From positions 1-39,034 of the forward strand of contig CAJFPH010000125.1 in NCBI GenBank assembly GCA_904398645.1: DNA of 39,034 nucleotides. The letters are read 5' to 3'. This document shows positions 17,090-37,880 of the stretch, in pieces (position 1 is the stretch's first letter; every line of letters starts with the position of its first letter). The notes under the pieces are model-generated. The model saw nothing but the letters and a program-made list of their open reading frames with translations, made no database searches and had not been told where the DNA came from. This stretch comes from Candidatus Allobutyricicoccus pentlandensis. Its GTDB lineage: Bacteria; Bacillota; Clostridia; Oscillospirales; QAMX01. The translations under genes and the position numbers were made by a program.

Positions 17090-20000
17090 TTAACCGTTAA
17101 CATGAACCTGTCGCCCAGCGCAAGTAAAGAAGACTCGACGCCCTTTACAATAGGTTCCTCAAAGATGAAATCACCTGTAAGGACGGCGCGTACTTCTATT
17201 GTAACCGTAAAGTCGCTGCGCAATGCCGTGTTACCTGCTTCATAGTTGCGGCGATCCAAAACGAAGGTGAGTCTGTTTGCCTCCTGCGAGACCAGATAGC
17301 ATCCGGAATTGTGGACATATTCATAGCTGGAATATCGCGTGCCGGAAGGAAGAACGAAATCCAGTGTATAAATTTCGCCGGGACAGTCTTCAGAAAACGT
17401 CACGTAAGACGTAATGCTGGCGATGCTGCCAACAGACAGACTCTCCGGTTCGCACGAAGTTGTGATGCTGATTTGGTCCGCTGCGTTTTCCTGCACGGAA
17501 TCCATGCCACCGGTGTAAACTGCCGTGTAACCTATGCTGCCGGATGTCACGCGGAAGTTCGCCGCCGCGAGATCTTCGCGGTTAAATTGCAAAATAACGG
17601 CAGGCGATTCAGAAAGCGACCACGTTTCGGTTTCTCCATTATAAGCACAGGAGAACGCCGCTGTTGAAGTGGGAAGCGCGGTGCGCGTGACGTAAGACAT
17701 CAGAGCAAAGGCAGGCAGTGTTTCACCGCTTTCGTTGCCAAGGAGGTACAGGATAAAGCCGTCCAGCTGCTGCGCGTCAATCAGATTTGCCAAAAGCGAC
17801 GCATAAACTGTGGCAGCATAATTTTCTTCGAACGTACCGATATCAACGTAATGCCATGTGTCGGATGTTTTCAGATAGGGGAGGACAAGCGCCTGATAAA
17901 GCTCTGTAGCACCGTCGTCATCACCGAGGAGTGCCAGCGCACAGGCAAGCAGGATCCGGTCGGAATCCGTAAAGCTATTCGTGTCGTCAACCAGGACGCG
18001 CAAATCGGAAAGTACCGGTTCGCGCATGGATGCAAGCCCCATATAAGCCGCTGCGATCTCTCCGGAGGTGGCGTTGTGGTTATTGATAATCCCATAGAGA
18101 TAGTTGACGGCCGCTCCCGCGTCGATATGTTCCACTGCGGAAACCAGTGCAAGCGCTGTGGTCAGAGCGTCCGGATCAGCATAGGAGAAGAGCCGTACAC
18201 CACCGCTGTAACCCTGATATGCGGAAAATTCAGGGCGTTCTATAGCCATTTCCGCGTCCGGATCAAGAGTTGAAAGGATATCGGCTGCCGTAATACGCGC
18301 AAGCGTTTGATCGACGCGTTGCCCGCTCATGGAGAGCAGTTCGGAGAGCGCAGACATATAAATCTGACGTTCCGCATCGTAGAAAATCATTGTGACCGGA
18401 TACTTAACGGCATCAATATCGACCGGATCCGAGAGATTGCCATAGGAAATGGCTGTCAACTCGTGACGGCTTTCCTCTATAAGAATCGTACGGGTAATAC
18501 CGTCACGCTGCGAACCGGAGTCTGCAAAAATGGTGATTTCATGACTGCCGGCTTCCAGCGGTCCCAAATTGAAATAGGTGTAACTGCCGGCTTTCCCCTC
18601 GGTCTCGACGACAGACTGACCGTCCACTGTTACCGTATAAGTCACGGCAGCGCCGTCCTGCGCGCCGTATACCCGCGCAGACAGCGAGACATCGTCTCCC
18701 ACTGTATAACTGTCGTTTAACACAAGATTGATGAAAAAGGGAATGGAGACTTCCACATTGTGCGTGGCGCTTCCGGCATACGCATTTTCTGAGACAACTG
18801 CCGCAGTGATGCGCCAGGAGGTCAGATTGTCGGGAAGCGTAAAGGAAAAGTCAGCATTACCAGAAGCGTCTGTCTGTCCGGTCAAAAAAGCCGCCGTATC
18901 GGCAAAATCATTTCGTGCCTCTTCCGAAGCCCCATCTCCACCGCCTTCCGCATAGGCGTCGCTCATATTTTTGTCAACATAAGAGACAAAACGAACCGGC
19001 TCTTCATAATAGCGCATGGTATAAAGCGACGACGCAGGATGAATCTGCTGATCCATGATGGCGAACAACGCTTCGTCAACAACACCGATGGCGTAACTTG
19101 CAGAAACGGGATTGCCCTCTGCATCTGTCACACGGATCGTGCCTTGAACTGTTCCGCCGGGAGAGTAGGCCTCTTCGTCAGTTGTGATATCTACAGAGAG
19201 CTCACGCTCGGTGTAGTCGTATAAAACATAGGCAGGCCGCACGGAGTAGACATGCTTTCCGTCAAAGTAGGCGGCGTAAATGACAACATTGGGGATCATT
19301 TCCTCTGTAAAGGTAAGGGAGAGTTTATTTTCCTCTGCGACGTCATAACGCAGTACATGATCGGTCATCGTCATATAAAGCGATGTGCCGGAAGTCACTT
19401 CCTCTGTACCACAAAGTCCGAAAACGGCGGTCTCCCCAAGCCGGAGATTACCGGCATCGGCATCTTCCCGCAAAAGATAGTAGCCATAGTAATATCCGCC
19501 CGGATAGGTGTCGCTGCCGAGATAAACAGACGTTTCAAAGGCAACGCCATCCGGGGAGGTATAGGTCACATCCATGCGGTAATAAGCGTTGTCGCTGTAA
19601 TCGGCATTTTGATAAGGCGTTGTGGTATATTGCCCGTTGACGGTTGTAAAATCTTCGCTGTACACGACTTCCTCATGACGTTCGTAGTCATAGGTATCAA
19701 CGGTAACTTTATTGATGGCGTCGTAATAGCTCCCGGTGGAATACTTTTCATAATAACACCGTACCAGCGTTGCCGTGCCGCTGACGTCCGCCGATTCGCC
19801 GCGCAATTCGTCAATGTGAGAGTAATAGTCGTTCAAATGTTCCTCAAACGAGACAAAATCAATGGCATTTGACTGAATTTCGACACTGAGTGAATGATCT
19901 GACGCAGCATTCGCCGTCAACATATAATCGCTCGGGAAGTAGTATGCCTGATCAAATGCACTGACATAGACGTCCTCTGCGCCGGTCGTGGATACATTAA

Positions 20001-22091: not shown

Positions 22092-22616
22092 TTAGATCGT
22101 TTCATCCTGCAGTATATTGCGAAGCATATCGCGTCCACGCTTTAACCGGACATTAACCGTAGATTTTGCGGTATGCTGTATATGTGCGATTTCTTCCGCT
22201 TTGAAACCGTCATAATAATAAAGGAGGATTGTCTGCCGGTAGATATCGGGCAGGCTCTGTATGGCGTCGAGCAGGACGATATTCTCGTCGCGATCAATTG
22301 CATCCTGTTCCGGTGTACCGGACGCATCTGCAGCCATATAGTCTGAAAATTCCTCCGGACGGTCGCGATAGGAACGCTTACGCATCATATCGCGACACAC
22401 GTTCATCGCAATACGGGTAATCCAGGTTTTCTCACTGGATTCCGAACGGAATGAAGAATATTTTGAATAGACCTTGATGAACGTCTCCTGTACGGCATCC
22501 TGTGCCAGATGATAATCTTTTAAATACAGATAGCATAGGCGCAGCAAGCCTGTGCCATAAGAATCCATGATCCTGTCGAGATCAGGCAGATCGTTTGTAG
22601 TTGTGAAAAACAGCAC
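22092..22616 (-). CDS. ECF-type sigma-70 family RNA polymerase sigma factor
   Basis: Region 2 'HLAQDAVQETFIKVY..WITRIAMNVCRDMMRKR'. Region 4 'LPDIYRQTILLYYYDGFKAEEIAHIQHTAKSTVNVRLKRGRDML'. The start is uncertain: GTG 22616 has AGGAGG at good spacing, ATG 22622 abuts the SD, and the track ORF starts at 22658. Confidence 0.82.
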   Translation of the reverse strand: MLFFTTTNDLPDLDRIMDSYGTGLLRLCYLYLKDYHLAQDAVQETFIKVYSKYSSFRSESSEKTWITRIAMNVCRDMMRKRSYRDRPEEFSDYMAADASGTPEQDAIDRDENIVLLDAIQSLPDIYRQTILLYYYDGFKAEEIAHIQHTAKSTVNVRLKRGRDMLRNILQDETI

Positions 22617-22704
22617 TGTCATCCTCCTGCAATGTGAGCAATCCGCCGTTTCATACATTAGACGAATGATACGACTGATAAATTACGATGAATGAGATAT
22701 GAAA

Positions 22705-22736
22705 ATAGTATACCATAAATATAGTATACCATAAAT
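22705..22736. repeat. Perfect 16-bp tandem direct repeat x2 (ATAGTATACCATAAAT)
   Basis: Read directly: 22705-22720 is identical to 22721-22736. Each unit has a GTATAC palindromic core. On the minus strand each unit reads TGGTATACT (extended -10-like). It lies about 85-120 nt upstream of the ECF sigma start. Confidence 0.9.
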
Positions 22737-22769
22737 TAAGATGAAAAAAAGAGAAAAAAAGTTTTATGT

Positions 22770-22805
22770 GCAAAAAGAAAGACGCGATTATAAAATAATC
22801 GCGTC
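22770..22805 (-). terminator. Intrinsic terminator of sigE
   Basis: 10-bp stem GACGCGAUUA/UAAUCGCGUC with a 5-nt loop, followed on the minus strand by UUUCUUUUU. Confidence 0.8.
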
Positions 22806-22853
22806 AAAACGAAAATGATTGGTTAAAATCTGAACGAAAAGAGACGTCCACAA

Positions 22854-23582
22854 TCAGATCAGCCGTGCAATATCATTTTTTAGTTTTGAGATAATTTTCT
22901 TTTCCAGTCTTGAAATATAGGATTGTGAAATTCCCATTAAATCGGCCACTTCCTTTTGCGTCATTTCCCGCACGCCGCCGAGGCCGAACCGCAGCGTTAT
23001 GATTTGCCGCTCCCGTTCGTTTAGCCGTCCAAGCGCTTCAGAGAGAAGCTGGCGGTCGGCATCGTCTTCCAAAGGTCGGATGACGCTGTCTGGTTCTGTG
23101 CCGAGAATATCGGAGAGCAACAGCTCATTTCCGTCCCAATCGGTATTGAGCGGCTCGTCAATTGATATTTCATGGCGCCTGTTGGAACTTTTACGCAGGA
23201 ACATTAATATTTCGTTTTCAATGCAGCGCGATGCATAGGTGGCGAGTTTTATGTTTTTGGCAGGATCGTAGGTATGAATCGCCTTAATCAAGCCGATCGT
23301 ACCAATGGAAATCAGGTCTTCGATATTGACATTTGTGTTTTCAAATTTTCGCGCTATGTAGACGACAAGTCTGAGATTGCGTTCGATGAAGATACGGCTG
23401 ACCTCCTGATCGCCGTAATGTTCCATCAGGCGAAGTTCCTCCTCCGGTGAGAGCGGCTGAGGCAGGCTTTCCGCGCCGCCGATATAGAAGATGCTACCGG
23501 TTCGTCCAATACCGCGCAGCCATTTGAACCGGTTTTTCAGCAGATAAATCCGGGTTAAAAACGTTTTCCAAAAGTGCTTCAT
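22854..23582 (-). CDS. sigE: Sporulation sigma factor SigE (pro-sigma-E)
   Basis: '[14 protein letters not shown]', '[35 protein letters not shown]' and '[14 protein letters not shown]' closely parallel B. subtilis SigE. It lies 16 nt downstream of spoIIGA. ATG 23582 has AGGAGG upstream. Confidence 0.92.
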
Positions 23583-23598
23583 GCCAGGCTCCTCCTTT

Positions 23599-24468
23599 TC
23601 ATGCGCCAATTACTGCGCCGCATCCTGTTTCTTCCGATAGTTCTGTTTCCGTAAGCGCAACAAGCGCGCCTTCCAATGCGTTGTCGTTTTCCCGGACGCT
23701 GTCTGCCCGCAGGGCCAGCAGCAAACCATGTTTTGTGCCAATGGCACGATAGGGAATCAGGCGAAACCCATCACCGTACCCTGCGCCTGCAAGCATCCTG
23801 AGCGTTTCGGCCGCATCGGAAACGCCAAACACATCAAAGATCGCACGCATGCCATGTGGAAATGCATCACGTACCCGGGTGTATTCCACAACGACGATAC
23901 GGCCGTTTGTAAGCGGATCGGTAAGCCGGTTACCGGTGTCTACCATTGCCTCCAGTTCAATCGTTTTTCCAAACAGTGTGATCGCTACAACGGTACGCAG
24001 TACCGCATGTTCAGAGAGCCTCGGCGCATTTTTCAGGAGCAATGTCATAATCAAGTAGGCGCCAAGCGCTACTGCAATGAGAACGGTTGAAGAGATCCCT
24101 GCGTACAAGACGCCGTTGCGCACAGCGGCATTTTCCGGGTTTGTAAATTTGAAAAGCGCCATCATGGCGCCGGCGAACGCAAAACTGACTACATAAAAAA
24201 TCAATGTTCGCCGTAGAAAGGTTCTCCAGTCATGAAAACCGTATGAGATTACGCTCATCAATGCTGAAAATGCCGTCTTTGCAAGGACGGTATAAAAAAT
24301 ATGTAGCTCCGGAAAAAACATAAAGCAGGCATAGAGGGCGCCTGCTGCCGCTCCGGCAAAGATACGCAGACGCTTGATCTGTGAACCGCAAAGCATGGCG
24401 GAGGTGAGGAGCAGCAGGTAATTGATGATAAGGTTTAAAATAAAGAGCTCATCTATATATACGACCAT
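23599..24468 (-). CDS. spoIIGA: Sigma-E processing peptidase SpoIIGA
   Basis: Polytopic N-terminus '[19 protein letters not shown]'. Aspartic protease motif '[12 protein letters not shown]'. Located immediately upstream of sigE. Confidence 0.9.
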
Positions 24469-26116: not shown

Positions 26117-26254
26117 TTAAATTTTCCCGCGGCAAATTATCAAGACAATTGCACAGACCACACCGAGTACAAGAGACGCCGCTGTGCAGGTCAGTAACGC
26201 ATCCCATGTAATTTGTCCTGTTAAAATTGTATCAAGCACAGACGAGCACCCCAT
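26117..26254 (-). pseudogene. DUF4956 family membrane protein, N-terminal fragment (first TM helix only)
   Basis: The product is MGCSSVLDTILTGQITWDALLTCTAASLVLGVVCAIVLIIC, then RGKI and a stop. It overlaps the VTC gene stop by 23 nt, as a second operon gene would. The rest of the family sequence is missing here and is found at 35329 on the other strand. Confidence 0.6.
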
Positions 26255-26948
26255 TCTTGCCAAGAACCTGTTCTTTATAGTAGGTTCCATATTTAGAAAA
26301 CGACGTCGGGTAAACCGCAAGCCGGTCCAAAAGTTCACAGAGCCAAAGCGGCACCGCATCTGGAACTTTGACTTCCATCAGATAGGCCGTGGGCGGGAGC
26401 AGGTTAAAACCCGGCTCCCGCGATTCAAGCCGTAGCGCGTCGCTCTGCCATCGGAGGTTGCTGTCAAAAGTGACGCGCACCCCGTCGTCCTCGCGACCGG
26501 TAAACGCGATGCGGTCATAAGAAAGCCTGACCGCTGGCGACGGTTTATAAAATTGAAGAAACCAATCGATTTCATGATGGATTTGTTCTTCGTTGGCGGG
26601 TTTGTACGTCCCTGCCAAATACGCGTAGGCATCCATAAGCGGCATGGCAATGCGGCGTTTATATACAATACCGCGATATTTTTTCTTTAGTTCCACAAAC
26701 GCCATGCTCTCTTGCGTCGTGACGCCATAGGTGCGCAGACGGAGCTTTTCCTTATAAACCGGCTTGTCTAAAGATGCACGGATCAGTCTGTAGTCCTCTG
26801 TATCGTAATAAAGGCTGTTGACCCTTGCCTCAGCGAAGCGGTCCGGTTTCATATAAGTCTCTAGTTGTCCCATAAGGGTTGCATATTGCTCTGTATTTAA
26901 CAGATACTTTATTTCACGGCGCTGAAACACCGTCTGATAATTCTGCAT
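26232..26948 (-). CDS. VTC domain (polyphosphate-polymerase-like, triphosphate tunnel fold) protein
   Basis: 'FQRREIKYLL', 'NSLYYDT.DYRLIRASLDKPVYKEKLRLRTYG', 'FVELKKKYRGIVYKRR', 'LMEVKV' fit bacterial VTC (PF09359-type) proteins. Confidence 0.82.
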   Translation of the reverse strand: MQNYQTVFQRREIKYLLNTEQYATLMGQLETYMKPDRFAEARVNSLYYDTEDYRLIRASLDKPVYKEKLRLRTYGVTTQESMAFVELKKKYRGIVYKRRIAMPLMDAYAYLAGTYKPANEEQIHHEIDWFLQFYKPSPAVRLSYDRIAFTGREDDGVRVTFDSNLRWQSDALRLESREPGFNLLPPTAYLMEVKVPDAVPLWLCELLDRLAVYPTSFSKYGTYYKEQVLGKNGVLVCA

Positions 26949-26987
26949 ATGGATACCTCCTTGCCGTTGTGGCTTTACTATACAGAA

Positions 26988-27032
26988 TTAACGTTAAATT
27001 AAACTGAAAAAATCCTTTCAGCCTTTTTTCAG
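26988..27032. promoter_or_regulatory. Palindromes in the divergent VTC / response-regulator control region
   Basis: A perfect 10-bp palindrome TTAACGTTAA (26988-26997). A perfect 9-bp inverted repeat CTGAAAAAA(27004-27012)/TTTTTTCAG(27024-27032) with a nested CTGAAA/TTTCAG. Confidence 0.4.
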
Positions 27033-27087
27033 GCAGGAGTGCTATTCTGTTTACAAATATGATGTTTTATAAAAAGGTGGGTAATTC

Positions 27088-27768
27088 GTGAACATCCTGA
27101 TTGTGGAAGATGAAAAAAGGCTTGCCGATGTGCTCGTACAGATCATGCGTGAAGCAAAATATCAGGCAGAGGCGGTTTACGACGGACAGGACGGTATTGA
27201 CTATGCGCTCGGTGGGGACTATGATGTTATCATCTTAGATGTCATGCTGCCGAAAAAGGATGGCTTTGCCGTCGTTCGTGCTCTGCGGGAATCCAAACGT
27301 GCGACTCCTGTCCTGATGCTCACCGCACGCAGCGATGTCTCCGACCGGGTCGCCGGCCTTGACTGCGGTGCCGACGACTATCTGACAAAACCGTTTGCAA
27401 CGGAAGAACTCCTGGCGCGTGTACGTGCACTCTCCTGCCGGCAGGGGGAAATTGTCCTGGACGTTCTACAGTACGGGGATTTGGAATTCTCCGTCGATAC
27501 ACATGATCTCAAGTGCAGCGCACGGTCTGTACGGCTCAGTTTGAAGGAATTTGAAGTTTTACGAATTTTAATGTCTGCACCCCGTACAATTGTTTCCAAA
27601 GAAATGCTGATCACAAAAGTATGGGGTTATGATTCCGAAGCTGAGGCAAACAATGTAGAGGCGTACATATCCTTTCTGCGGAGAAAGCTGCATTATTTGG
27701 GATCTCGCGTCTCTATCAACGTCATACGAAAAGTCGGATACCGGCTTGATGAGGATGCGTCATGCTGA
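27088..27768 (+). CDS. OmpR/PhoB-family response regulator
   Basis: Receiver domain 'ILIVEDE...DVIILDVMLPKKDG...LTAR'. Winged-helix C-terminus 'LSLKEFEVLRILM...VEAYISFLRRKL...IRKVGYRL'. GTG start at 27088. Confidence 0.9.
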   Translation: MNILIVEDEKRLADVLVQIMREAKYQAEAVYDGQDGIDYALGGDYDVIILDVMLPKKDGFAVVRALRESKRATPVLMLTARSDVSDRVAGLDCGADDYLTKPFATEELLARVRALSCRQGEIVLDVLQYGDLEFSVDTHDLKCSARSVRLSLKEFEVLRILMSAPRTIVSKEMLITKVWGYDSEAEANNVEAYISFLRRKLHYLGSRVSINVIRKVGYRLDEDASC

Positions 27769-28991
27769 AAAAACTACGCCGCCGGTTTGTAATCGTCGCT
27801 ATGACGCTCATTACTTCGGTTTTATTGCTGGTTTTTTTTGCATTAATTCTTTTCAATTATCAAAGATTCTCTGAGGATACTCAACAGGCATTGGAACGTG
27901 TTCTGCGGCTGCCTCCCGGAGAAAATGTGACTGGACCGGAAATCGGACTGCCTGGTGAGAGAGAGCCCGGGTTCGATGCCTTGGCCTTTAGCGTTTATCT
28001 GGATTCGGACGGCAACGTCCTGGGCGTCAGTAAAGGCGGTGTCTCCGTGTCGGACGAAACACTTGAAACCGCTGTGCAGCTGGCCTTGGCGGCGGAAAAT
28101 CCTACCGGTGTCCTGACCGGCCTGTCACTCCGGTATTTAAAACGCTCGGACAGTATGGGAATCCGAATTGCATTTGCCGACACATCGCGTGAAATGGAAA
28201 ATATGCGTAACCTCGTATTGAGCTCTCTTGCCGTCGGTCTGAGCGGCTGGGCTGCATTTCTCGTGATTACGCTATTCCTATCCCGGCAAATTATACGTCC
28301 CGTCGAACGTGCCTGGGCACAGCAACGCCGTTTCGTTGCAGATGCCTCACATGAGTTGAAAACTCCCCTTACCGTCATTTTGGCAAACGTCGATCTTTTG
28401 CTTCTGCATAAAAACGAGCCTCTGTGTGATCACATACAGTGGCTCGTCAATTCACGGGAAGAGGCCGTAAAAATGAAGGGGCTTGTGGAAGATATGCTTT
28501 TTTTGGCGCGGTCTGATTCCGGGCGGGAACAGCCCGTTTTAGCAGACGTTAACTTCAGCGATATCGTAACCAGCTGCCTGCTTTCTTTCGAGCCTGTCGC
28601 CTTTGAGCATAACGTCGCTCTGGAGTCAGAAGTAGAGCCGGAACTTCATATAAAGGGCGACGGCGTTCAGCTTTACCGCTTAATCGCTATTTTAGCTGAC
28701 AATGCCGTCAAATACGCGGGAGATGGTGGGCGTGTTATGATAACGCTTTCCCTGTCAGGGGGACATCCGCTTTTGCGTGTCCAAAACACCGGAGAAACCA
28801 TACCCAGTGAAGATATACCAAATGTATTCGACCGTTTTTACCGTGCCGACCAATCTCGTAACAGCGATCGAGGGGGCTATGGGCTTGGCCTCTCCATCGC
28901 AAAAGAAATTGCGGAACAACACAGGGCTAAAATTGAGTTAAGCTCCAGCCGCGATCATCTCACGGTTTTTCAAGTTCTCTTTTCAACATAA
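27762..28991 (+). CDS. Sensor histidine kinase (2 TM, HisKA + HATPase_c)
   Basis: H-box 'FVADASHELKTPLTVI', N-box 'LADNAVKYA', G-boxes 'DRFYRADQSR..GGYGLGLSIAKEI'. It overlaps the RR stop by 7 nt. Confidence 0.9.
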   Translation: MLKKLRRRFVIVAMTLITSVLLLVFFALILFNYQRFSEDTQQALERVLRLPPGENVTGPEIGLPGEREPGFDALAFSVYLDSDGNVLGVSKGGVSVSDETLETAVQLALAAENPTGVLTGLSLRYLKRSDSMGIRIAFADTSREMENMRNLVLSSLAVGLSGWAAFLVITLFLSRQIIRPVERAWAQQRRFVADASHELKTPLTVILANVDLLLLHKNEPLCDHIQWLVNSREEAVKMKGLVEDMLFLARSDSGREQPVLADVNFSDIVTSCLLSFEPVAFEHNVALESEVEPELHIKGDGVQLYRLIAILADNAVKYAGDGGRVMITLSLSGGHPLLRVQNTGETIPSEDIPNVFDRFYRADQSRNSDRGGYGLGLSIAKEIAEQHRAKIELSSSRDHLTVFQVLFST

Positions 28992-29023
28992 CTCATAGTC
29001 TTGCAAAGCGCAGACCACATAAA

Positions 29024-29066
29024 AATAAAGATGGGCGAGAATAAAAAATTCTCGCCCATCTTTATT
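29024..29066. terminator. Very strong hairpin / bidirectional terminator between HK and the second VTC gene
   Basis: A 19-bp perfect stem AATAAAGATGGGCGAGAAT / ATTCTCGCCCATCTTTATT with a 5-nt A loop. The flanks are A/T-rich. Confidence 0.8.
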
Positions 29067-29159
29067 TTCAACGCTTTTGCACGTCGCTCGTACCATTTCT
29101 ACAGCCGCACACTTATAAATCTGTATCCTCAGGAGATTTCCTTTTCCAAGATCCAGCGT

Positions 29160-29807
29160 TTATCTGGCAAGCCCATACCCCACAATGGAACGCAGAGGCT
29201 CCTGAAGCTGGCGGTCATACTTGACTTTTAAAACCAGCGTTCTGGCACTGTCTAGCGGCATTGCAGTAATCTCCGGTTCTAAAAAGCCCTCTGCGCGGTT
29301 GGTCGTACGGATATTGATATCCACGCCAATGCGCACATTACCGATACGTGACTCCAGCGCAATTTTATCATTGTCTATGACGTTCTTCGTTACAAACTCA
29401 TCGACTACGAGCTTCTGATAAAACTCGCGCACCAGCTCGTCCTCGCTCTCGGAAAGCCAGGTAAAATCGCGATTCAAAATAGCTTTGCACTCTTCGACCG
29501 TAATCGGTGTATACGCCGTCATGACCCGTTTTTCAAATGAACTTTCCTTGCAAAGCCGGAGCGTTCCAAGATCATGATTATAATACCTGATAAAAAACTG
29601 GTCGACGCGCTCACCGCGAAGTTTCCGGCTCCGCGAGGCGCGCACACGCTTCCGTCCGAAATACACAGTTCGGACATGATACTTTCCCTTTTCATCCGTA
29701 AACGGCGCGTTTGAAACGTATTCTTTCAGCTTTGCGAGCATCGGAACAAACTCGCCATGCGTTACATAGCGCTTAAACTCGTTTCTTACCGCTGTCACTT
29801 CCATCAC
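29160..29807 (-). CDS. Second, divergent VTC-domain-like protein (orphan paralogue)
   Basis: 'RNEFKRYV' (the E-x-K start of the tunnel fold), 'VRTVYFG', 'QFFIRYYNHDLGTLRLCKES', 'ITVEECKAIL', 'LVLKVKYD' match the Clostridial VTC-like pattern from memory. GGGAGA RBS is present. Confidence 0.65.
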   Translation of the reverse strand: MMEVTAVRNEFKRYVTHGEFVPMLAKLKEYVSNAPFTDEKGKYHVRTVYFGRKRVRASRSRKLRGERVDQFFIRYYNHDLGTLRLCKESSFEKRVMTAYTPITVEECKAILNRDFTWLSESEDELVREFYQKLVVDEFVTKNVIDNDKIALESRIGNVRIGVDINIRTTNRAEGFLEPEITAMPLDSARTLVLKVKYDRQLQEPLRSIVGYGLAR

Positions 29808-30050
29808 ATCTTTTCTCCCAAAAATGTCTTTTTATTTTATTATACTACGCAACCGACACATGCCGCTATATTGAAAAGTTATGAATACGTCCTTCTTTTT
29901 CGATATGTTTTTATTAAAAAACGGCAAAATCAACAAAACGGAGTCAATGCTTTAATACATATTTTACAATTTACCAAATTTCGTCATCCCATTTGGGAAA
30001 TAATCCGCATGTTATTATTCACCAGTTTATAGAGACATTAATCATGGCAT

Positions 30051-30092
30051 TCTAAAAAATAAATCCCACACCAGATAGGGATCTCGTGCGGG
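30051..30092 (-). terminator. Intrinsic terminator after the recG-GNAT pair
   Basis: On the minus-strand RNA: CCCGCAC GAGAU cccu AUCU GUGUGGG, followed by AUUUAUUUUUU. Confidence 0.7.
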
Positions 30093-30105
30093 AGCTGACA
30101 CTGTT

Positions 30106-30603
30106 TTATTCGGCAAGCTTTTTCAAATCTTCGTCCGTTACGCGATATGTTGTCCACTCATCAAGAGGTTTTGCGCCCAATGATTTATAAAACTTGATCG
30201 AATTCACATTCCAGTTCAGGCAGACCCATTCAAACCGGCGGCAATTTCTCGCAACGGCTATACGTGCTACCGTTTTAATCATGGCAAGGCCAATTCCCCT
30301 TCCGCGATACTCCGGTTTCACATAGAGGTCTTCCAGATACATTCCCGCTCGGCCCAAGAAGCTTGAAAAATTCATAAAGTAAATCGCATATCCGACGGCC
30401 TTACCTTCAAATATGGCAAGAAACGCCTCCGCGCTATGCTTTATAAGCAGAGATTCTTCCAGCACATCCTCTGCTACATCAAAAATATCCTCCAGATGCT
30501 CATACTCTGCAAGTTCATACAGCAAGCCGCGCAACGTGGAGAGGTCTTCCTTCTCCACGGGCTTCAAGGTCAAACCGGCAACATTTGTTTTCAGATCTTC
30601 CAT
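30106..30603 (-). CDS. GNAT N-acetyltransferase, diamine (spermidine/spermine) acetyltransferase-like
   Basis: 'LEDLYVKPEYRGRGIGLAMIK...RFEWVCLNWNVNSIKFYKSLGA' parallels SSAT-type GNATs. ATG 30603 (MEDLKTN) lies 4 nt after the recG stop. The track ORF is N-terminally over-extended. Confidence 0.82.
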   Translation of the reverse strand: MEDLKTNVAGLTLKPVEKEDLSTLRGLLYELAEYEHLEDIFDVAEDVLEESLLIKHSAEAFLAIFEGKAVGYAIYFMNFSSFLGRAGMYLEDLYVKPEYRGRGIGLAMIKTVARIAVARNCRRFEWVCLNWNVNSIKFYKSLGAKPLDEWTTYRVTDEDLKKLAE

Positions 30604-30607
30604 ATCT

Positions 30608-32638
30608 TTACGTCCTTTCTTTTTGAAACAATTGACTAATCTGATTGCGCAAAACGGTATTCTCCGGCGCGGAAAGCTGTGGGTCTTGCGCCAAAAGAGC
30701 AAGTGCGGCATCATGCGCGCTTGCAAGCAACGTCATATCGGCGCCAAGATCCGCAATTTTTAATCCCGGGACGCCGGACTGTCTTTGCCCAAAGAATTCG
30801 CCTGGTCCACGAATGCGCAGATCCTCACGAGCAATTTCAAAGCCGTCATTTGTCCGGCACATAGTTTCCAATCGTTCTCGTGTCATTTGTGAGGCAGAGC
30901 GCGTGAGCAGCACACAATACGATTTTTTATCAGAACGTCCCACGCGTCCGCGCAACTGATGCAATTGAGAAAGACCAAAGCGCTCGGCATTTTCAATTAC
31001 CATCATGTTGGCATTCGGAACATTCACGCCTACCTCAATCACTGTCGTCGCAACAAGCACCTGAACATTGCCGGCCACAAAGGCCTCCATCACTTCGTCT
31101 TTTTCGCGGGCGGACATTCTCCCGTGCAAAAGCTCTACGCGGTATCCGCCGAAATATCTTTGCCGCAGCTCGTCCGCGAATACCGCGGCGGCCTTCAAAT
31201 CCTCATTTTCCGTTTCCTCAATCACAGGGCAGACAATATACGCCTGCCTGCCGCGGTCAAGCTGACGGCGCATAAAGCCATATACCGCATCCCGGTACTC
31301 CTCCGACGGCGCGCGCGTATCAACCGGAATACGTCCCGGAGGCAGTTCATCAATCACAGAGAGATCCATGTCGCCGTATAACACCATCGCTAATGTACGC
31401 GGAATTGGGGTCGCGCTCATGACAAGCATATGCGGCGGAATCTCCGCCTTTTCGCGCAAACGTGCACGCTGCCTCACGCCAAAGCGGTGCTGCTCGTCCG
31501 TCACCACAAGCCGCAGCCGCGAAAACGTTACGCCCTCAGAAAGCAACGCGTGCGTACCGATCACAAAGTCAATCTCTCCGGATACCAGCCGTTCACGCGT
31601 CTGCCGGCGTTCTATAAGCGGCATTCCCGCCGTCAAAAGTCCTACACGGACGCCGAGCGGTTGCAAAAGCGCCGAAAGGTCCAAATAGTGTTGGCGTGCC
31701 AAAATCTCTGTCGGCGCCATCATGGCCGATTGCGCGCCGCCTTGGGTAGCAGCATAGGCAAGCGCAGCCGCCACCACCGTCTTACCGGAGCCAACGTCAC
31801 CCTGTACCAGGCGGCGCATAGCAATGCCGGCCGGCGACGTCATATCGGAAAGAGCCTCATCAATAGCACGATGCTGCGCATGCGTCAGTGCAAACGGGAG
31901 CGCCTGATAAAAAGGCTCCATGCTGGGCAGGGGCAACGTCTCTCCCGCTTCTCCGCGATCCGTCTTCAGCATGGCAAGACCCAGGGAAAGCGTAAAAAGC
32001 TCCTCAAATGCAAAACGTTTTCGCGCAGCTGTAAGCATTTCCACACTCTGCGGCGCGTGGATTTGCCGGTAGGCCTCATGGAGAGCCATCAGTGAGTATT
32101 TCTCAATAACCGCGGCCGGGAGCGTCTCCGGTATTTCATTTACATACGCCAGAGCATGCTCTACCATGCGGATCACGGCAGAGTTCGGGAGGCCCTCCGT
32201 CAGACGATAAACCGGTAGAATGCGTCCTGTCTTCAAATGGCTGTCCGGACGTTCCATAACGGGGTTTGTCAAAAAAAAGCGCCTGCCCATACGCTCGGCC
32301 TTTCCATAAAAGCGATACGTTTCCCCCTGCGAGGCGCTGAAATATTTTGCATTGAAAAAGGTCACCTGCAAAGATCCGGTATCGTCCGAAATGGTAAACT
32401 TGGAAATAGGCCGGCCGCCGCTCCCCCGGTACGACATGACAGGACTTGTAATTTCTGCACATACGCAGACGCTCTCACCCTCCGTCACTTCATTGATCGG
32501 AACCGTTCGGGTTCGATCCTCATAGGCTCGTGGAAAGTGACGCAGGAGATCGCCGACCGTTTCAATATGCAGCCGCTTCAAAAGTTTGGCGCGGGCCTCG
32601 CCCACGCCTTTTACGTATTGTACGCTACGGTCTATCAT
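30608..32638 (-). CDS. recG: ATP-dependent DNA helicase RecG
   Basis: Wedge-domain N-terminus 'VQYVKGVGEARAKLLKRLHIETVGDLL', Walker A 'GDVGSGKTVVA', 'DEQHRFG', 'QLHQLRGRVGR'. Confidence 0.93.
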   Translation of the reverse strand: MIDRSVQYVKGVGEARAKLLKRLHIETVGDLLRHFPRAYEDRTRTVPINEVTEGESVCVCAEITSPVMSYRGSGGRPISKFTISDDTGSLQVTFFNAKYFSASQGETYRFYGKAERMGRRFFLTNPVMERPDSHLKTGRILPVYRLTEGLPNSAVIRMVEHALAYVNEIPETLPAAVIEKYSLMALHEAYRQIHAPQSVEMLTAARKRFAFEELFTLSLGLAMLKTDRGEAGETLPLPSMEPFYQALPFALTHAQHRAIDEALSDMTSPAGIAMRRLVQGDVGSGKTVVAAALAYAATQGGAQSAMMAPTEILARQHYLDLSALLQPLGVRVGLLTAGMPLIERRQTRERLVSGEIDFVIGTHALLSEGVTFSRLRLVVTDEQHRFGVRQRARLREKAEIPPHMLVMSATPIPRTLAMVLYGDMDLSVIDELPPGRIPVDTRAPSEEYRDAVYGFMRRQLDRGRQAYIVCPVIEETENEDLKAAAVFADELRQRYFGGYRVELLHGRMSAREKDEVMEAFVAGNVQVLVATTVIEVGVNVPNANMMVIENAERFGLSQLHQLRGRVGRSDKKSYCVLLTRSASQMTRERLETMCRTNDGFEIAREDLRIRGPGEFFGQRQSGVPGLKIADLGADMTLLASAHDAALALLAQDPQLSAPENTVLRNQISQLFQKERT

Positions 32639-33057
32639 GCATCGTCACCAATTTCCCGTATGTCCGCCGCTTTTATAATACGCCGGATCTCCCGATCTAC
32701 AGACGGCGTAATTTTTTTTCGAAAAAGCGATAACGACAACGGTGCGAAAGGGCGCTCTCTGGTAAACTCATTGAGTCCTACAAAATACTGCATATAGGGG
32801 TTCTCCTGTATCTGCCGAACCGTTTCCGCGTCGGAGCACTTCAAATGGTCGCCAATCATCATCGCACCCAGCATCATCCGCAGAGGCTTCGCCGGCGCTC
32901 CGCGCGATGAATACAGTTTGGCAGACAAAACTCGTTCCAGTTCTTCCCAAGGCATAGCTCTAGCCCGGACCACCCACCGGTTTTCCGGATCGAGCATATC
33001 CTCCAGGGGATGGATTAATGTGTAAATATCCAATTGCCCGTCGGGAAGCTTATACAT
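32635..33057 (-). mobile_element. IS5-family transposase N-terminal (DUF772/InsH-N) fragment; no DDE domain
   Basis: 'GAPAKPLRMMLGAMMIGDHLKCSDAETVRQIQENPYMQYFVGLNEF...PFAPLSLSLFRKKI' is the typical DUF772 block. The ORF ends after 140 aa in an ATGA overlap with the recG start. I recognised no terminal inverted repeats. Confidence 0.65.
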
Positions 33058-33070
33058 GTCAACCCCTCAG

Positions 33071-33892
33071 TCATTCGTATTTTTCAATATCTACCCACGC
33101 CACACTGCCATCCAGAGGATGACAGAGATACATTCCAGCATTCTGTTTAAATTGCTCCACGCTGTCGCTAACAAAATAACGGCGCGTACCAATACGCCCT
33201 TCCGGAGCTGTCAAGCCATTTTTTTTCAGGGAATCTGCTACTGCTTTCGCGGCCTCCGCCCCCGAACTTATGAGCGCAGCACCAGGTACGCAACGTGAAA
33301 TAGCCTCCGAAAGCAACGGATAGTGCGTACAGCCCAAAATGATCGTGTCGGCGCCCGCCTCGCGTACCGGTGCCAGGTACTCCTCCGTCAAAATGCGTAC
33401 CAAAGGATCTTCCGGGCGGAAACGTCCGTTTTCCACAACGGGGACAAACAGCGGGCATGCCTTTTCTATCACCGTAATTTCCTGCGAGAGCCCTTTCAGA
33501 AAATTTCCGAACACATGACCTGAAATTGTGGCAGGTGTCGCCAGTACCGCAACGCGCCCTACACGCGTCACTTCCACAGCGCGGCGCGACGCGCCTTCGA
33601 CCACACCGAAAACAGGAATAGGCAATTCTTTCTGCAATGTTTCCAGAGCAGCATAGCTTGCCGTCCCACAGGCGATCAGCAATAGCTTCAAGTCAAAGCT
33701 GCAGAGAAACCTGGCGTCCTGCCGCGCATACTTGACAATTGTCTCACGGCTGCGCGTACCATACGGCACACGTCCCGTATCTCCAAAATAAACAATATCT
33801 TCATGCGGCAGCAGCGCCGACAGTTCACGCATGGCGGTCAGGCCGCCAATCCCGGAGTCAAATACGCCGATGGCGCGGTTATCCTCCCCCAT
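33071..33892 (-). CDS. murI: Glutamate racemase
   Basis: 'IGVFDSGIGGLT', 'IACGTAS', 'ILGCTHYPLL'. Confidence 0.92.
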   Translation of the reverse strand: MGEDNRAIGVFDSGIGGLTAMRELSALLPHEDIVYFGDTGRVPYGTRSRETIVKYARQDARFLCSFDLKLLLIACGTASYAALETLQKELPIPVFGVVEGASRRAVEVTRVGRVAVLATPATISGHVFGNFLKGLSQEITVIEKACPLFVPVVENGRFRPEDPLVRILTEEYLAPVREAGADTIILGCTHYPLLSEAISRCVPGAALISSGAEAAKAVADSLKKNGLTAPEGRIGTRRYFVSDSVEQFKQNAGMYLCHPLDGSVAWVDIEKYE

Positions 33893-33895
33893 GGC

Positions 33896-34954
33896 TCACC
33901 TATGAAACGCAAGCGTCACAAGACGGTCAATCAGCTCCGAATAGGAAATACCGGAAGCCTCGAAAAGTTGCGGATACATACTAATACTCGTAAAACCCGG
34001 AATGGCATTGAGTTCGTTAAACACAACAGCCCCATCCGTACGAAGGAAAAAGTCTACGCGCGCAAGACCGAAGCATCCCATGGATCGGAATATGCGTTCG
34101 GCAACACGACGCACACAGTCAGAAGCCTCCTGTGGGATACGCGCCGGAATAAAAAGCCGGGACTCCTCATCATCATATTTAGCAGAATAGGTATAGAACT
34201 CCTGCGCGGGTGCAATCTCCCCGACGCACGACGTCAGCACCTCGCCGTCCGCATCGCCCAGCACGGCCACTTCAATTTCCTGCCCAACGACACATTCCTC
34301 TAACACCAGTTTACGGTCAAAGCAAAGCGCCTCTTCTATGTATTGCTTTACATCTGCCACGGTTTTAGCTTTACCAACGCCAATAGAGGACCCCGCGCGA
34401 GCCGGTTTGACAAACAACGGGAGTCCCAACGTTTCAGCGGCATCTGCCGCAATGCCATCCGGATCCCTCTCAAATTTTCTCTGATGCAAAACAAGATACT
34501 TTGCCTGGTTAATCTGCTCGCGTTCGGCAAACATCTTGGTTATGACTTTATCCATGGTATTCGCCGCAGCCGCCACGCCGCACCCGACGTATGGGATACC
34601 CGCCAGTTCCAAAAGGCCCTGAATGGTCCCATCCTCGCCGTTTTTGCCATGCAAAACGGCAAACACCACGTCAACACGCTCCGTATGACCATCCTCATAA
34701 ATGAGGCCGTGAACAGCAGTGTCCGGTGAAATGCAGCAGGCTACGTTTTCCGCATGCTGTTCCCATGCGCCGCTTCTAATTGCAGCGGGATCCCCGCCGC
34801 GATACCGCAGCCAACGTCCGTCGCGCGTAATGCCGACCGTTATCATTTCATATTTTTCTGAGTTAATATGGTCAAGTACCGATTCCGTAGACCGGCAGCT
34901 TACTTCATGTTCCGTTGACGCGCCCCCGAAAAGGACACAAAGTTTATATCGCAT
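33896..34954 (-). CDS. ddl: D-alanine--D-alanine ligase
   Basis: 'VLFGGASTEHEVSCRS', 'HGKNGEDGTIQGLLELAGIPYVG', 'EVAVLG', 'ELNAIPGFTSISMYPQL'. Start is ATG 34954 with GGAGG upstream. The track ORF starts at 34990. Confidence 0.92.
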   Translation of the reverse strand: MRYKLCVLFGGASTEHEVSCRSTESVLDHINSEKYEMITVGITRDGRWLRYRGGDPAAIRSGAWEQHAENVACCISPDTAVHGLIYEDGHTERVDVVFAVLHGKNGEDGTIQGLLELAGIPYVGCGVAAAANTMDKVITKMFAEREQINQAKYLVLHQRKFERDPDGIAADAAETLGLPLFVKPARAGSSIGVGKAKTVADVKQYIEEALCFDRKLVLEECVVGQEIEVAVLGDADGEVLTSCVGEIAPAQEFYTYSAKYDDEESRLFIPARIPQEASDCVRRVAERIFRSMGCFGLARVDFFLRTDGAVVFNELNAIPGFTSISMYPQLFEASGISYSELIDRLVTLAFHR

Positions 34955-35328
34955 TTCAGGCAACCTCCAAAAGACCGCCGGGCATACCACCCGGACGCTT
35001 ATAAAGATACAGTATTATAATACCACTGCAGCCCCAAAAATGCAAACGAAAAGAAAATGTACATGCCCTGACGGCAACTATTTTCTCGTATATGCCCATT
35101 CCGGCAGCAAACGACGCTTTATCAGATCTTTCGTTTCAGCACCTCCACGGCATCTATCATACAACGTTGGCTTTCAGACAGGCCGCTTTTATATACTAAC
35201 TGCATAATGGAAGAAAAAACTGCGTCCCTAAAATCTGTGTGCCCACAATAAAGGTGTGAAACGGAAAGATACGAAAATAACGCACGGTAACATTGTCATA
35301 AAGCGCATCTCCGTTTCCAAACATATTC

Positions 35329-35895
35329 ATGTTTCGCAATACCTATACAAAAAGCTTTGTTATTACATTGGCGTTACTACCTGCAATTGTACAGGCGGTG
35401 ATCATGCTGGTAAATGGTAACCTGGGCACGGGCGTTGCTGTGATGGGAGCATTTAGTCTTGTGAGATTTCGTTCGGTACCGGGCAGTGCCAGAGAAATTT
35501 GCAGCCTGTTTCTCGCCATGGCGTTGGGTCTGGCAACTGGAATGGGGTATATTGGAATCGCTGTATTTTTGGCTGTCGTTTTGAATCTTGTACAGGTTTT
35601 GTTGGTGCTATCCAAATTTGGGGAAGGGGTGAGCGAAGAAAAAGAGTTGAAAATTACGATTCCGGAGAGCCTCGACTATACAGGCATTTTTGACGATATC
35701 TTTGTCACACATACCAGACGTGCAGAACTTATGCGGGTAAAGACCAGTAATATGGGTAGTCTTTATGAACTTTGTTACCGCGTCACGCTGAAAAACCGAA
35801 ATACGGAAAAACAGATGATAGACGAAATACGTTGCCGCAACGGAAATCTTACTATCGTATGCGGCAAGGTGCCGGTTAGCAGGGAAGAACTATGA
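35329..35895 (+). pseudogene. DUF4956 family membrane protein, C-terminal ~4/5 (lacks first TM helix)
   Basis: 'MFRNTYTKSFVITLALLPAIVQAVIMLVNGNLGTGVAVMGAFSLVRFRSVPGSAREI..LAMALGLATGMGY' is the conserved DUF4956 core. A stop lies 10 codons upstream in frame. It complements the fragment at 26117-26254. Expression as a truncated protein from ATG 35329 is still possible. Confidence 0.7.
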
Positions 35896-37880
35896 AAACG
35901 ATTCAAATGCAAAATAAATGGTGTTTGGTACTGGCGTGTATGCTGATTTGTCTTGGCGGGTGCAGCACACAGGCTTCTGTGACAGACGTTACATTACAGA
36001 ATTCTGCGGAGCATACCGACACAGCAGCGGAAAATACGGCAGGGACCGGCACAGTAGATTTTACTTCTACCGAAGTGACTTCCGGGGCGATTACAGTCAC
36101 GTATACGGACCGGGAATTGACGGGTGCGTATGATAGTCCGGTTACAGATCTGGAACTGGAAAATGAAGATGTTGTCATTTCATCTGCAGGGACTTATGTT
36201 CTGTCAGGAACGATTTCCGACGGGCAGATTGTTGTGGAAGCGGGGGAGGCCGACAAGGTACAGCTTGTATTAAACGGCGTATCCATTACAAATAGCGACG
36301 GCCCTGCAATTGAAATACGAAGCGCAGATAAAGTGTTTCTGACTTTGGCGGAGGGCAGCGAAAATATGCTGTCCGACGGAGAAGCTTATGTGCTTGCAGA
36401 CGGCGAGGATGAACCAAACGCTTGCGTCTACTCCAAAGCAGATTTATGCATAAATGGCGACGGGAATCTCACGATTTATGGAAATTATAATCATGGTGTG
36501 TATTCAAAAGACGATCTTGTCATTACGGGCGGCACACTTACCGTCAACGCGGTTAATGACGGATTAAAGGGCAAGGACTGTGTAGAAATATGCGGCGGTA
36601 CCTTTACGATTGAAGCAGGCGGCGACGGGATTCAATCCAACCATGCAGAGGATGCCGAGCGCGGCTATGTCTCCATTGACGGCGGTACGTTTGTAATTGT
36701 TGCCGGGTGTGACGGTATTCAGGCGGAAACCTGTTTGCAGGTGACATCCGGATCACTGCTGATTACAACCGGAGGAGGCAGTGCCAACGCCAGTGTGAAA
36801 CAGGATGGCAACTGGGGCTTTTGGGGTTCGCAGATCACTTCTGCGGAGGAAACCGAGAGCGCAAAGGGCCTGAAGGCAGGCGTTGCACTTTATATTGCGG
36901 ACGGAGAGATCTCGCTTGATTCGTCGGATGATGCGCTGCATGCCAATGGGGATATCACGGTTGCCGGGGGTACAATTGAGATCAGTTCCGGCGACGATGG
37001 TGTTCATGCGGATGATGCGCTGGTTGTAACCGGCGGGAGCATGGTCATCAATCAAAGCTATGAAGGAATGGAAGGCAATAGCGTTACTGTCTCCGGTGGT
37101 GAAATAGAAATAATTGCAAGCGATGACGGTATCAACGCTGCAGGCGGCAATGACGGATCTGCCCTGAACGGACGCCCGGGACAGGGATCTTTTGATACTG
37201 ACGCAAGTTCCTATATTCGAATCACAGGCGGTACGATCACAGTACGTGCGGACGGAGACGGAATCGATTCCAATGGCGGATTTTATGTGGAAGGTGGTGC
37301 GCTATTCATCCACGGAACAACAAGCGGAGCAGATGGATTCCTCGATTATGAGTCCGAGGCGGTGATTACGGGCGGTACTGTGATTGCGGCAGGAGGCGCT
37401 GCAATGGCGCAGGCCTTTGGAACCAATTCGACGCAATGCTCCATGCTTCAGACATTTGACACGCAGGTCGCGGCGGGGACAGTTCTGACTGTTTGCGATG
37501 CGGCGGGCGAAGCATTGGTTACATTTACGCCGGAGAATACCTATCAGGCGGTGCTTGTCAGCCTTCCGGAACTGACGCTGGGTGAAACTTATACCATCAC
37601 AGCAGGAGAGCAGAGCGTGGAGGCGACGCTGGAGACTGTCGCGACCGGTTCAAATGATGTGATGCCCGGAGGAAACGGCGGCATGCGTCCGAACGCCGGT
37701 ATGGGCGGTGAAATGCAGGAGGATGTACCTCAAATGCCGGAAGGCGAATTTCAAGATGGCTCTGTGCCGGACGGTACGGCGTCCGGCGTGGCGACTCCTT
37801 CGGAGAACGGGATACCGGAGACAGACGGGAACCCGTCTGATACCGGAATGTCGGAACCGGAGAATCATGCCGATCGATGA
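35892..37880 (+). CDS. Cthe_2159/DUF4353-type beta-helix carbohydrate-binding lipoprotein
   Basis: Lipobox 'LICLGGCS'. Many coils of the form GG(T/E)(I/F)xIxAxxDG(I/V)x. Low-complexity G/M/P/E tail. ATGA overlap with the DUF4956 stop. Confidence 0.78.
   Translation: MKTIQMQNKWCLVLACMLICLGGCSTQASVTDVTLQNSAEHTDTAAENTAGTGTVDFTSTEVTSGAITVTYTDRELTGAYDSPVTDLELENEDVVISSAGTYVLSGTISDGQIVVEAGEADKVQLVLNGVSITNSDGPAIEIRSADKVFLTLAEGSENMLSDGEAYVLADGEDEPNACVYSKADLCINGDGNLTIYGNYNHGVYSKDDLVITGGTLTVNAVNDGLKGKDCVEICGGTFTIEAGGDGIQSNHAEDAERGYVSIDGGTFVIVAGCDGIQAETCLQVTSGSLLITTGGGSANASVKQDGNWGFWGSQITSAEETESAKGLKAGVALYIADGEISLDSSDDALHANGDITVAGGTIEISSGDDGVHADDALVVTGGSMVINQSYEGMEGNSVTVSGGEIEIIASDDGINAAGGNDGSALNGRPGQGSFDTDASSYIRITGGTITVRADGDGIDSNGGFYVEGGALFIHGTTSGADGFLDYESEAVITGGTVIAAGGAAMAQAFGTNSTQCSMLQTFDTQVAAGTVLTVCDAAGEALVTFTPENTYQAVLVSLPELTLGETYTITAGEQSVEATLETVATGSNDVMPGGNGGMRPNAGMGGEMQEDVPQMPEGEFQDGSVPDGTASGVATPSENGIPETDGNPSDTGMSEPENHADR

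Follow-up and report, generated by a model that had tools for sequence, protein, structure and literature searches.

Gene content of the locus

The window, i.e. the whole 39,034-nt stretch of Candidatus Allobutyricicoccus pentlandensis DNA analyzed here (contig CAJFPH010000125.1), encodes a VTC-domain protein, a membrane protein of the DUF4956 family (PF16316), a beta-helix lipoprotein of the Cthe_2159 type (PF14262) and a two-component system (TCS) composed of an OmpR/PhoB-family response regulator (RR) and a sensor histidine kinase (HK). Their positions are compiled in Table 1. As proposed in an earlier, purely sequence-based reading (hereafter the original prediction), Pfam recognized all three families of the VTC/DUF4956/Cthe_2159 trio and placed the RR (receiver and winged-helix domains) and the HK (HisKA and HATPase domains) divergently from the VTC gene. 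The VTC protein scored 148.2 bits in comparison to a cut-off of 23, and profile positions 1–230 of 235 were spanned. The original prediction had also joined the trio into one operon at 35329–37880. This part did not hold for the window, as an inversion splits the DUF4956 gene and the named span contains only two of the three genes, with DUF4956 truncated. VTC is separated from the 3’ part of DUF4956 and from Cthe_2159 by 8.4 kb and lies on the opposite strand, and no full-length DUF4956 is encoded; residues 1–37 and 39–226 are found separately. Tight coupling through overlapping stop and start codons, likewise proposed, is retained within each half: the DUF4956 start overlaps the VTC stop by 23 nt in minus-strand reading, and the reading frames of the 3’ DUF4956 fragment and Cthe_2159 overlap by ATGA. 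No NCBIfam model matched the VTC, DUF4956 or Cthe_2159 proteins.

Table 1. Features of the VTC/DUF4956/Cthe_2159 locus and their positions in the window.
Feature	Positions	Strand	Basis
VTC-domain protein (238 aa), soluble, Vtc4-type triphosphate-tunnel; intact in the window	26232–26948	minus	Pfam, PDB profile match, AlphaFold2 model
Orphaned 5’ DUF4956 fragment (37 native residues, 8 out-of-context residues, stop)	26117–26254	minus	sequence reading
3’ DUF4956 fragment (188 aa; residues 39–226)	35329–35895	plus	Pfam, 57.6 bits
Cthe_2159-type beta-helix lipoprotein (662 aa)	35892–37880	plus	Pfam, 347 bits
OmpR/PhoB-family response regulator (RR)	27088–27768	plus, divergent from VTC	Pfam
Sensor histidine kinase (HK)	27762–28991	plus, divergent from VTC	Pfam
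Candidate regulator operator	26993–27032	minus	conservation upstream of VTC in orthologous loci
Second VTC-like open reading frame (VTC2; 215 aa), strongly diverged	29160–29807	minus	Pfam VTC, 30.9 bits
Inverted segment (9,186 bp)	26142–35327	–	blastn and junction mapping against L003 and others

An inversion splits the DUF4956 gene

Relative to the intact alleles (L003/L009, L006, L007, L010 and L094), the inverted segment is reversed in the window with both breakpoints resolved to the base. The exchange was fully conservative and reciprocal, with 2-bp overlaps of AA (26142–26143) and TT (35326–35327) and no base gained or lost, and the break falls at codon 38 of DUF4956. The block carries VTC, RR, HK, VTC2, a GNAT gene, recG, a DUF772 remnant, murI and ddl. 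The intact layout reads GH8 > ddl murI DUF772 recG GNAT VTC2 <HK <RR VTC > DUF4956 (226 aa) > Cthe_2159, where GH8 is a glycoside hydrolase gene. Hence, the adjacency of VTC and DUF4956 is present in the intact allele of this species and broken in the window. The operon order VTC>DUF4956>Cthe_2159, which the original prediction had reconstructed from the two halves, indeed occurs in other metagenomes on the same haplotype.

Both DUF4956 halves bear the traces of the break. Past the VTC stop, the minus strand contains an overlapping open reading frame (ORF), MGCSSVLDTILTGQITWDALLTCTAASLVLGVVCAIV, which runs into a short nonsense tail ending at 26117. The 37 N-terminal residues that are missing from the 3’ fragment, comprising the first membrane helix, are encoded here, at 26254–26144 (minus strand) directly 3’ of VTC, and are identical to residues 1–37 of the intact 226-aa protein (P0121; L003:10695–11375). 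The 188-aa ORF is 5’-truncated; its Pfam match begins at profile position 15, and the ORF itself begins at M39 of the full protein. Of the five predicted membrane helices it retains four, along with the C-terminal ACT/PII-like domain.

Both arrangements were retrieved from public assemblies by exact-protein look-up, in which the layout of the window was shared by at least five contigs. Identity of the flanks to intact alleles of the window’s haplotype (L003/L009, L006, L007, L010) is 99.98–100%. Wherever compared, every inverted copy examined matched the window at 100% identity, setting aside indels and a few mismatches of the kind usual in long-read contigs; intact copies were found on the same haplotype and on lineages diverged by 1–4%. 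Long-read-type contigs (L002, L004, L005) cross both junctions and the inverted allele occurs in at least seven independent samples, L099 and L102 among these, so the inversion is no assembly artefact. A scan of metagenomes of the Joint Genome Institute (JGI) for the inversion junction yielded 0 hits. GC (guanine-cytosine) skew is negative across 29–35 kb only, i.e. confined to the inverted block, which fits the intact order as the ancestral one. A supposed third allele with a 163-aa DUF4956 (L098, L100, L101) was dismissed, as full-length DUF4956 is encoded on these contigs and the shorter version stems from the start codon that the gene caller picked.

In the window form, VTC retains its own promoter. 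No promoter-like site was found there on the plus strand 5’ of the truncated DUF4956 ORF. The 3’ part of DUF4956 is thus parted from its promoter and start and Cthe_2159 from its promoter, and the module is most likely inactive in this strain. The DUF772 remnant within the block (140 aa; N-terminal part of an IS5/IS1182-type transposase; 32635–33057, minus strand), which at its end shares 4 nt with the start of recG, is present in inverted and intact alleles alike and therefore is not the cause of the inversion.

The module is conserved across Clostridia

To assess linkage of the families, 80 loci around the closest VTC relatives (44–73% identity) were surveyed, taking one genome per species and scoring neighbors by tblastn. 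These loci represent the nearest VTC subfamily of a family that returned at least 8,000 hits in searches. DUF4956 is located directly 3’ of VTC on the same strand at 76 loci. A Cthe_2159 homologue is linked at 61 loci; among the 55 loci with flanks of 4 kb or more on each side, the count is 44. The RR/HK pair is linked at 34 loci. With V, D, C, R and H denoting VTC, DUF4956, Cthe_2159, RR and HK, the arrangements counted were V>D>C> (23 loci), R>H>V>D>C> (14), H<R<V>D>C> (6), C<V>D>R>H> (6) and C<H<R<V>D> (4). At least six architectures hold the same families together. As gene order varies while the families stay together, the linkage appears to be functional rather than inherited. The original prediction had staked itself beforehand on co-occurrence of the three families, which these figures bear out. 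Also its view that Cthe_2159 is more than an accidental neighbor gained support: linkage survives shuffling of gene order, and the linked orthologues are consistently lipoproteins. At the loci lacking Cthe_2159, a CotH kinase was found in one case (L089) and unrelated neighbors in the others.

Carriers of the module are found mainly among Clostridia of gut and rumen, and the closest VTC relatives belong to the Oscillospiraceae. Cultured carriers are Anaerotruncus colihominis DSM 17241, Clostridium merdae, Bittarella massiliensis, Blautia hominis and Fusicatenibacter saccharivorans.

Four metagenomic proteins were considered as Rosetta-stone fusions and rejected as such. Three of them combine partial VTC with partial DUF4956 (P0304, P0279, P0272) and one combines DUF4956 with the C-terminus of a regulator (P0258); they probably represent deletions or chimeric assemblies across adjacent genes. 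Judging from these four proteins, rearrangement or error recurs at the gene junction.

The VTC protein resembles the catalytic domain of Vtc4

When compared with PDB sequences, the VTC profile matched solely Vtc4, Vtc2 and Vtc3, with an E-value of 2.5e-9 for Vtc4 (3g3q). The AlphaFold2 model of the protein (predicted local distance difference test score, pLDDT, 85; predicted template modeling score, pTM, 0.82) gave a congruent picture. Its top 13 matches among PDB folds were all Vtc4, Vtc3 or Vtc2 (E 5.6e-14 to 1.7e-11), with a template modeling (TM) score of 0.75 for Vtc4, and CYTH/triphosphatase structures followed with E-values of 4e-8 or worse. The protein consists of a single VTC domain with no predicted membrane helix and possesses neither an SPX domain nor a Vtc1-type three-helix domain.

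Alignment by HMMER to 3g3q and 8i6v equates K14 with K200 of Vtc4, R70 and R72 with R264 and R266, K88 with K281, K97 with K294, Y144 with Y359, R146 with R361 and R158 with R373. In Vtc4, Lys200 reportedly is catalytic, and R264, R266, K281, K294, R361 and R373 are said to be basic residues of the tunnel. All eight aligned residues (K14, R70, R72, K88, K97, Y144, R146, R158) are invariant in 16 homologues. The C-terminal third of the VTC protein yielded no match among PDB sequences. An invariant E192-x-K194 motif located in a predicted strand (residues 189–195) and the pair S218-K219 are plausible candidates for the equivalents of the metal-binding E426 of Vtc4 and of its C-terminal Ser457/Lys458, respectively, as far as the sequence allows such an assignment. 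Judged from sequence and model, the VTC protein would most likely make polyphosphate from the gamma-phosphate of nucleoside triphosphates.

The obvious reference is the eukaryotic VTC complex, in which Vtc4 acts together with a Vtc1/Vtc3 pore (3g3q, 7ytj, 8i6v). Both systems share the tunnel fold, with Vtc4 being the nearest structural neighbor, as well as the catalytic lysine and the basic tunnel residues, and in both a genetic link connects the enzyme with a membrane protein. However, the bacterial catalytic domain is separate and soluble, lacks SPX and is not fused to membrane helices. Its DUF4956 partner, with five transmembrane helices and an ACT/PII-like domain, displays no detectable similarity to the Vtc1 helices. 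Moreover, the bacterial module adds a surface lipoprotein and a two-component regulator.

DUF4956 is a membrane protein with a putative ligand-binding domain

The AlphaFold2 model of the intact 226-aa protein comprises five membrane helices, followed by a C-terminal domain of beta-alpha-beta-beta-alpha-beta topology. This domain weakly resembles PII-like SbtB and ACT domains in the comparison with PDB folds (E ~0.01). The DUF4956 profile found no match among PDB sequences. The distribution of positive charges suggests an N-out/C-in orientation, with the soluble domain facing the cytoplasm. The family counts ~5,000 clusters at 50% identity, nearly all of which represent stand-alone proteins of ~225 aa. 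A match to MgtC (PF02308) is faint and was seen in 11 of 41 homologues (best E 0.072), and some JGI records label DUF4956 homologues as ‘YhiD’.

Cthe_2159-type proteins of the module are lipid-anchored

The third protein is homologous to the solved beta-helix of Cthe_2159 (PDB 4peu/4phb; E 5.5e-49). It carries a lipoprotein signal peptide, with the N-terminus MKTIQMQNKWCLVLACMLICLGGC ending in the lipobox cysteine and followed by S (lipobox L21-G-G-C24), and an acidic glycine-rich tail. At least 40 of 51 linked Cthe_2159 orthologues likewise possess a lipobox. Homology to Cthe_2159 of Clostridium thermocellum is clear across the beta-helix. In contrast to that protein, however, the window protein has roughly double the length and two Pfam stretches, is lipid-anchored and ends in the acidic glycine-rich tail, and its type belongs to a conserved VTC/DUF4956 operon.

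A conserved candidate operator links the two-component system to VTC

Upstream of VTC, and read in its sense, the window contains the element CTGAAA-N5-CTGAAA-N6-TTTCAG-N5-TTTAAC with an 11-bp period, ~10 nt upstream of a TATAGT -10 box (26977–26982). In the window and in all six other species with the arrangement H<R<V, the spacer between RR and VTC holds a conserved element composed of CTGAAA-N5-CTGAAA and the inverted TTTCAG-N5-TTTCAG, which precedes a -10-like box by 10–17 nt. In the 1.1 Mb of survey DNA, 15 exact copies of the double hexamer were counted, where 0.4 occurrences are expected, and at 7 loci one lies within 200 nt upstream of VTC. A tandem repeat of 11-bp period replacing the -35 region is the classic layout of OmpR/PhoB-type activator sites. 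This conserved candidate operator, recognized by its sequence, ties the RR/HK pair to the module. NCBIfam produced generic matches only for RR and HK, all below every equivalog cut-off, and gave no PhoB/PhoR assignment.

At locus L020, from a Desulfoscipio geothermicus metagenome-assembled genome, the four-hexamer operator is present three times, with positions of ~2650, 96 and -7900 nt counted from the start of VTC, which suggests a putative small regulon. At this locus, the regulator gene and VTC are set apart by an additional ~2.6 kb. A second VTC copy in the same genome (L037) has the operator and lacks DUF4956.

Related cassettes in the literature

The pair of VTC and DUF4956 has been published before, and the version with Cthe_2159 and TCS is new. 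Whitfield et al. (10.1101/768473) assigned to Gram-positive pel operons a set of accessory genes that encode CotH, a ‘poly-phosphate polymerase’, DUF4956 and DUF4832. The homologues SIR_1592-1594 of S. intermedius were modeled, which yielded a Vtc4-like tunnel protein and a four-helix MgtC-like membrane protein with an ACT domain, and the cotH/VTC/DUF4956 triad was reported as not found outside pel operons (10.1101/2024.04.20.589940). The module studied here shares with this cassette the adjacent, co-directional VTC and DUF4956 genes and an exported or surface-exposed third partner, which also in other lineages is secreted or surface-exposed (CotH at L089 and in the published cassettes). It differs in that the beta-helix lipoprotein replaces the CotH kinase, which was present at 1 of the 80 survey loci, and in that a dedicated RR/HK pair with a candidate operator is linked. 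None of the scanned ORFs of the window belonged to the CotH or pel families.

In NELoc-2 of C. perfringens, a VTC gene and a gene for a 226-aa membrane protein precede a resolvase gene, after which come a second VTC gene, a gene for a 222-aa membrane protein and CotH (PMC2879425). From size and position, our guess is that both membrane proteins are DUF4956 proteins. A serine recombinase gene thus sits between two probable copies of the core pair, which deserves attention beside the 2-bp crossover inversion described here.

In the literature searched, neither a functional study of the VTC/DUF4956/Cthe_2159 trio nor a paper linking Cthe_2159 to VTC/DUF4956 was found, in agreement with the original prediction that no bacterial function is established for the trio.

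Proposed function and alternative explanations

We favor the view, with a probability of roughly 0.55, that the locus represents a four-part envelope module of Clostridia, which is made up of a Vtc4-type enzyme, a membrane partner, a lipoprotein and a TCS and is present here as an inverted, most likely inactive copy. In such a module, VTC would be a cytoplasmic tunnel enzyme of the Vtc4 type that builds polyphosphate. DUF4956, which is translationally coupled to VTC, would most likely anchor or regulate VTC at the membrane and may pass the product outward. On the outer face of the membrane, the lipid-anchored beta-helix would bind or act on this product or on a polyanionic wall polymer. The dedicated OmpR-type TCS probably would activate the operon through the four-hexamer operator, which the VTC promoter has in lieu of a -35 region. 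Polyphosphate as product, a complex of VTC with DUF4956, export and the role of the beta-helix are what we infer from the observations above.

Bacterial synthesis of polyphosphate is credited to PPK1 and PPK2. A third route that resembles Vtc4 would alter the annotation of polyphosphate metabolism, the more so if it involved coupling to the membrane and a surface protein, and could explain the source of extracellular polyphosphate from gut Firmicutes. Such a route is now directly testable: cultured carriers, mutable residues, the candidate operator and a pair of intact and disrupted strains on otherwise identical background provide experimental handles.

Several observations weigh against the envelope module as proposed, and some of these favor an alternative, namely that VTC is a tunnel-type triphosphatase or nucleotide-processing enzyme rather than a polymerase. 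The module would then be a signaling or regulatory device, in which the ACT/PII-like domain of DUF4956 senses the substrate or product of VTC and modulates a membrane or envelope process in the manner of MgtC, and the lipoprotein would act independently on wall or dietary glycan. In strand beta-1, the VTC protein has R-x-E-x-K where Vtc4 has R-x-T-x-K; this glutamate (E12), a threonine in Vtc4, is kept as in the hydrolytic ExExK tunnel enzymes, to which the motif is nearer. The sequence alignment to Vtc4 ends at residue 170, leaving the equivalents of E426 and K458 unaligned. The check on loss of the tunnel residues, to which the original prediction had exposed itself, came out in its favor for those residues that can be aligned, which are kept and invariant. 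With a pLDDT of 70, the DUF4956 model is moderate in quality, and its membrane part is unmatched in the PDB, the Vtc1 pore included; its C-terminal domain best resembles PII-like and ACT-type ligand sensors and no pore-like similarity was found. The notion of a split VTC analogue found partial support in the Vtc4-like fold and the separate, conserved membrane partner; a channel role of DUF4956 and delivery to the beta-helix remain conjectural. The faint MgtC signal in 11 of 41 members and the placement of a homologue in MgtC by CDD (10.1101/2024.04.20.589940) fit the signaling alternative as well. Deletion of the S. intermedius homologues had no clear phenotype (10.1101/2024.04.20.589940), a report of activity for any bacterial VTC protein was not found in the literature searched, and a clean full-length VTC-DUF4956 fusion was not found either, only partial chimeras. 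Finally, 13 of the 80 loci contain VTC and DUF4956 only, and thus the lipoprotein is not obligatory. On the other hand, fold and sequence of the VTC protein are far nearer to Vtc4 than to any hydrolytic tunnel enzyme, and every alignable basic tunnel residue of Vtc4 is kept. Moreover, the third partner is extracytoplasmic wherever identified, which is hard to square with a purely cytoplasmic signal. On balance, we consider a signaling device possible but unlikely, and the Vtc4-type envelope module remains the preferred explanation. An elaborate form of the latter, in which the soluble polymerase docks onto a DUF4956 oligomer and polyphosphate is threaded outward, to be captured by Cthe_2159 or, in sister cassettes, to serve CotH kinases as phosphoryl donor, appears more doubtful still; it would yield polyphosphate displayed at the surface or released outside the cell under TCS control, with the inversion serving as a reversible OFF switch.

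Whether the inversion could have such a role at all was weighed separately. It might be a programmed, reversible ON/OFF switch for phase variation of the membrane protein and the surface lipoprotein, brought about by a serine-type invertase acting in trans and cutting at the 2-bp AA/TT core. This idea is attractive since the reciprocal exchange was fully conservative and left 2-bp overlaps at the two junctions, since both orientations exist on an identical haplotype in different samples, and since a single gene is damaged and the essential ddl-murI-recG genes retain their own promoter region. The resolvase gene between the two pairs of VTC and membrane protein in C. perfringens points in the same direction. 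The junctions also lie within near-palindromes (P ~0.03 for the right site) and the two sites are slightly alike (P ~0.01–0.02). However, this likeness is in direct rather than inverted orientation and statistically weak; Monte-Carlo analysis of similarity and palindromy of the breakpoint sites gave P-values of 0.01–0.23. Inverted repeats beyond the 2-bp core are lacking at the breakpoints, and the window harbors no recombinase gene, only the 140-aa DUF772 transposase remnant. Furthermore, the inverted allele was encountered on a single haplotype and intact alleles occur on several diverged lineages, and no sample with both orientations was found. Invertible segments of the Hin/Gin type resemble the case in their conservative reciprocal inversion with a 2-bp crossover core, but here an adjacent invertase and shared inverted-repeat sites are missing, the payload is 9.2 kb of housekeeping genes and a single haplotype is affected. 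We therefore hold a programmed switch to be improbable; most likely, one recent inversion event took place. The opposite extreme, that the three genes are unrelated neighbors with Cthe_2159 as an independent carbohydrate-binding gene, or that the split is an artefact of assembly, could invoke the Pfam description of the solved Cthe_2159 homologue as a carbohydrate-binding protein and the glycoside hydrolases nearby in the window. It is effectively refuted by linkage in 61 of 80 species despite reordered genes, by the overlap of stop and start codons between the genes, and by long-read contigs crossing both inversion junctions, with at least seven samples concurring.

Neighboring genes

The second VTC-like ORF, VTC2, was rejected as a member of the module. 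It is diverged, none of the 80 survey loci has a counterpart, and hhalign assigned a probability of 13% against the main VTC profile, with the position of the catalytic beta-1 lysine unaligned. VTC2 is convergent with the HK gene, and between the two genes lies a perfect inverted repeat of 21 nt with a loop of 5 nt (29022–29068), probably a bidirectional terminator.

None of the proteins matched a PADLOC defense model. A gene for a SpoIIGA-type peptidase of family U4 and two genes for sigma-70-family sigma factors are located at 22092–24468 (minus strand). They recall the spoIIGA-sigE-sigG sporulation cluster, which presumably would imply an endospore-forming host of the Clostridium type. The minus-strand region 16187–22068 encodes a 1,660-aa bacterial alpha-2-macroglobulin-like protein (Big_5, A2M_BRD and A2M domains), followed by a Memo-family gene.

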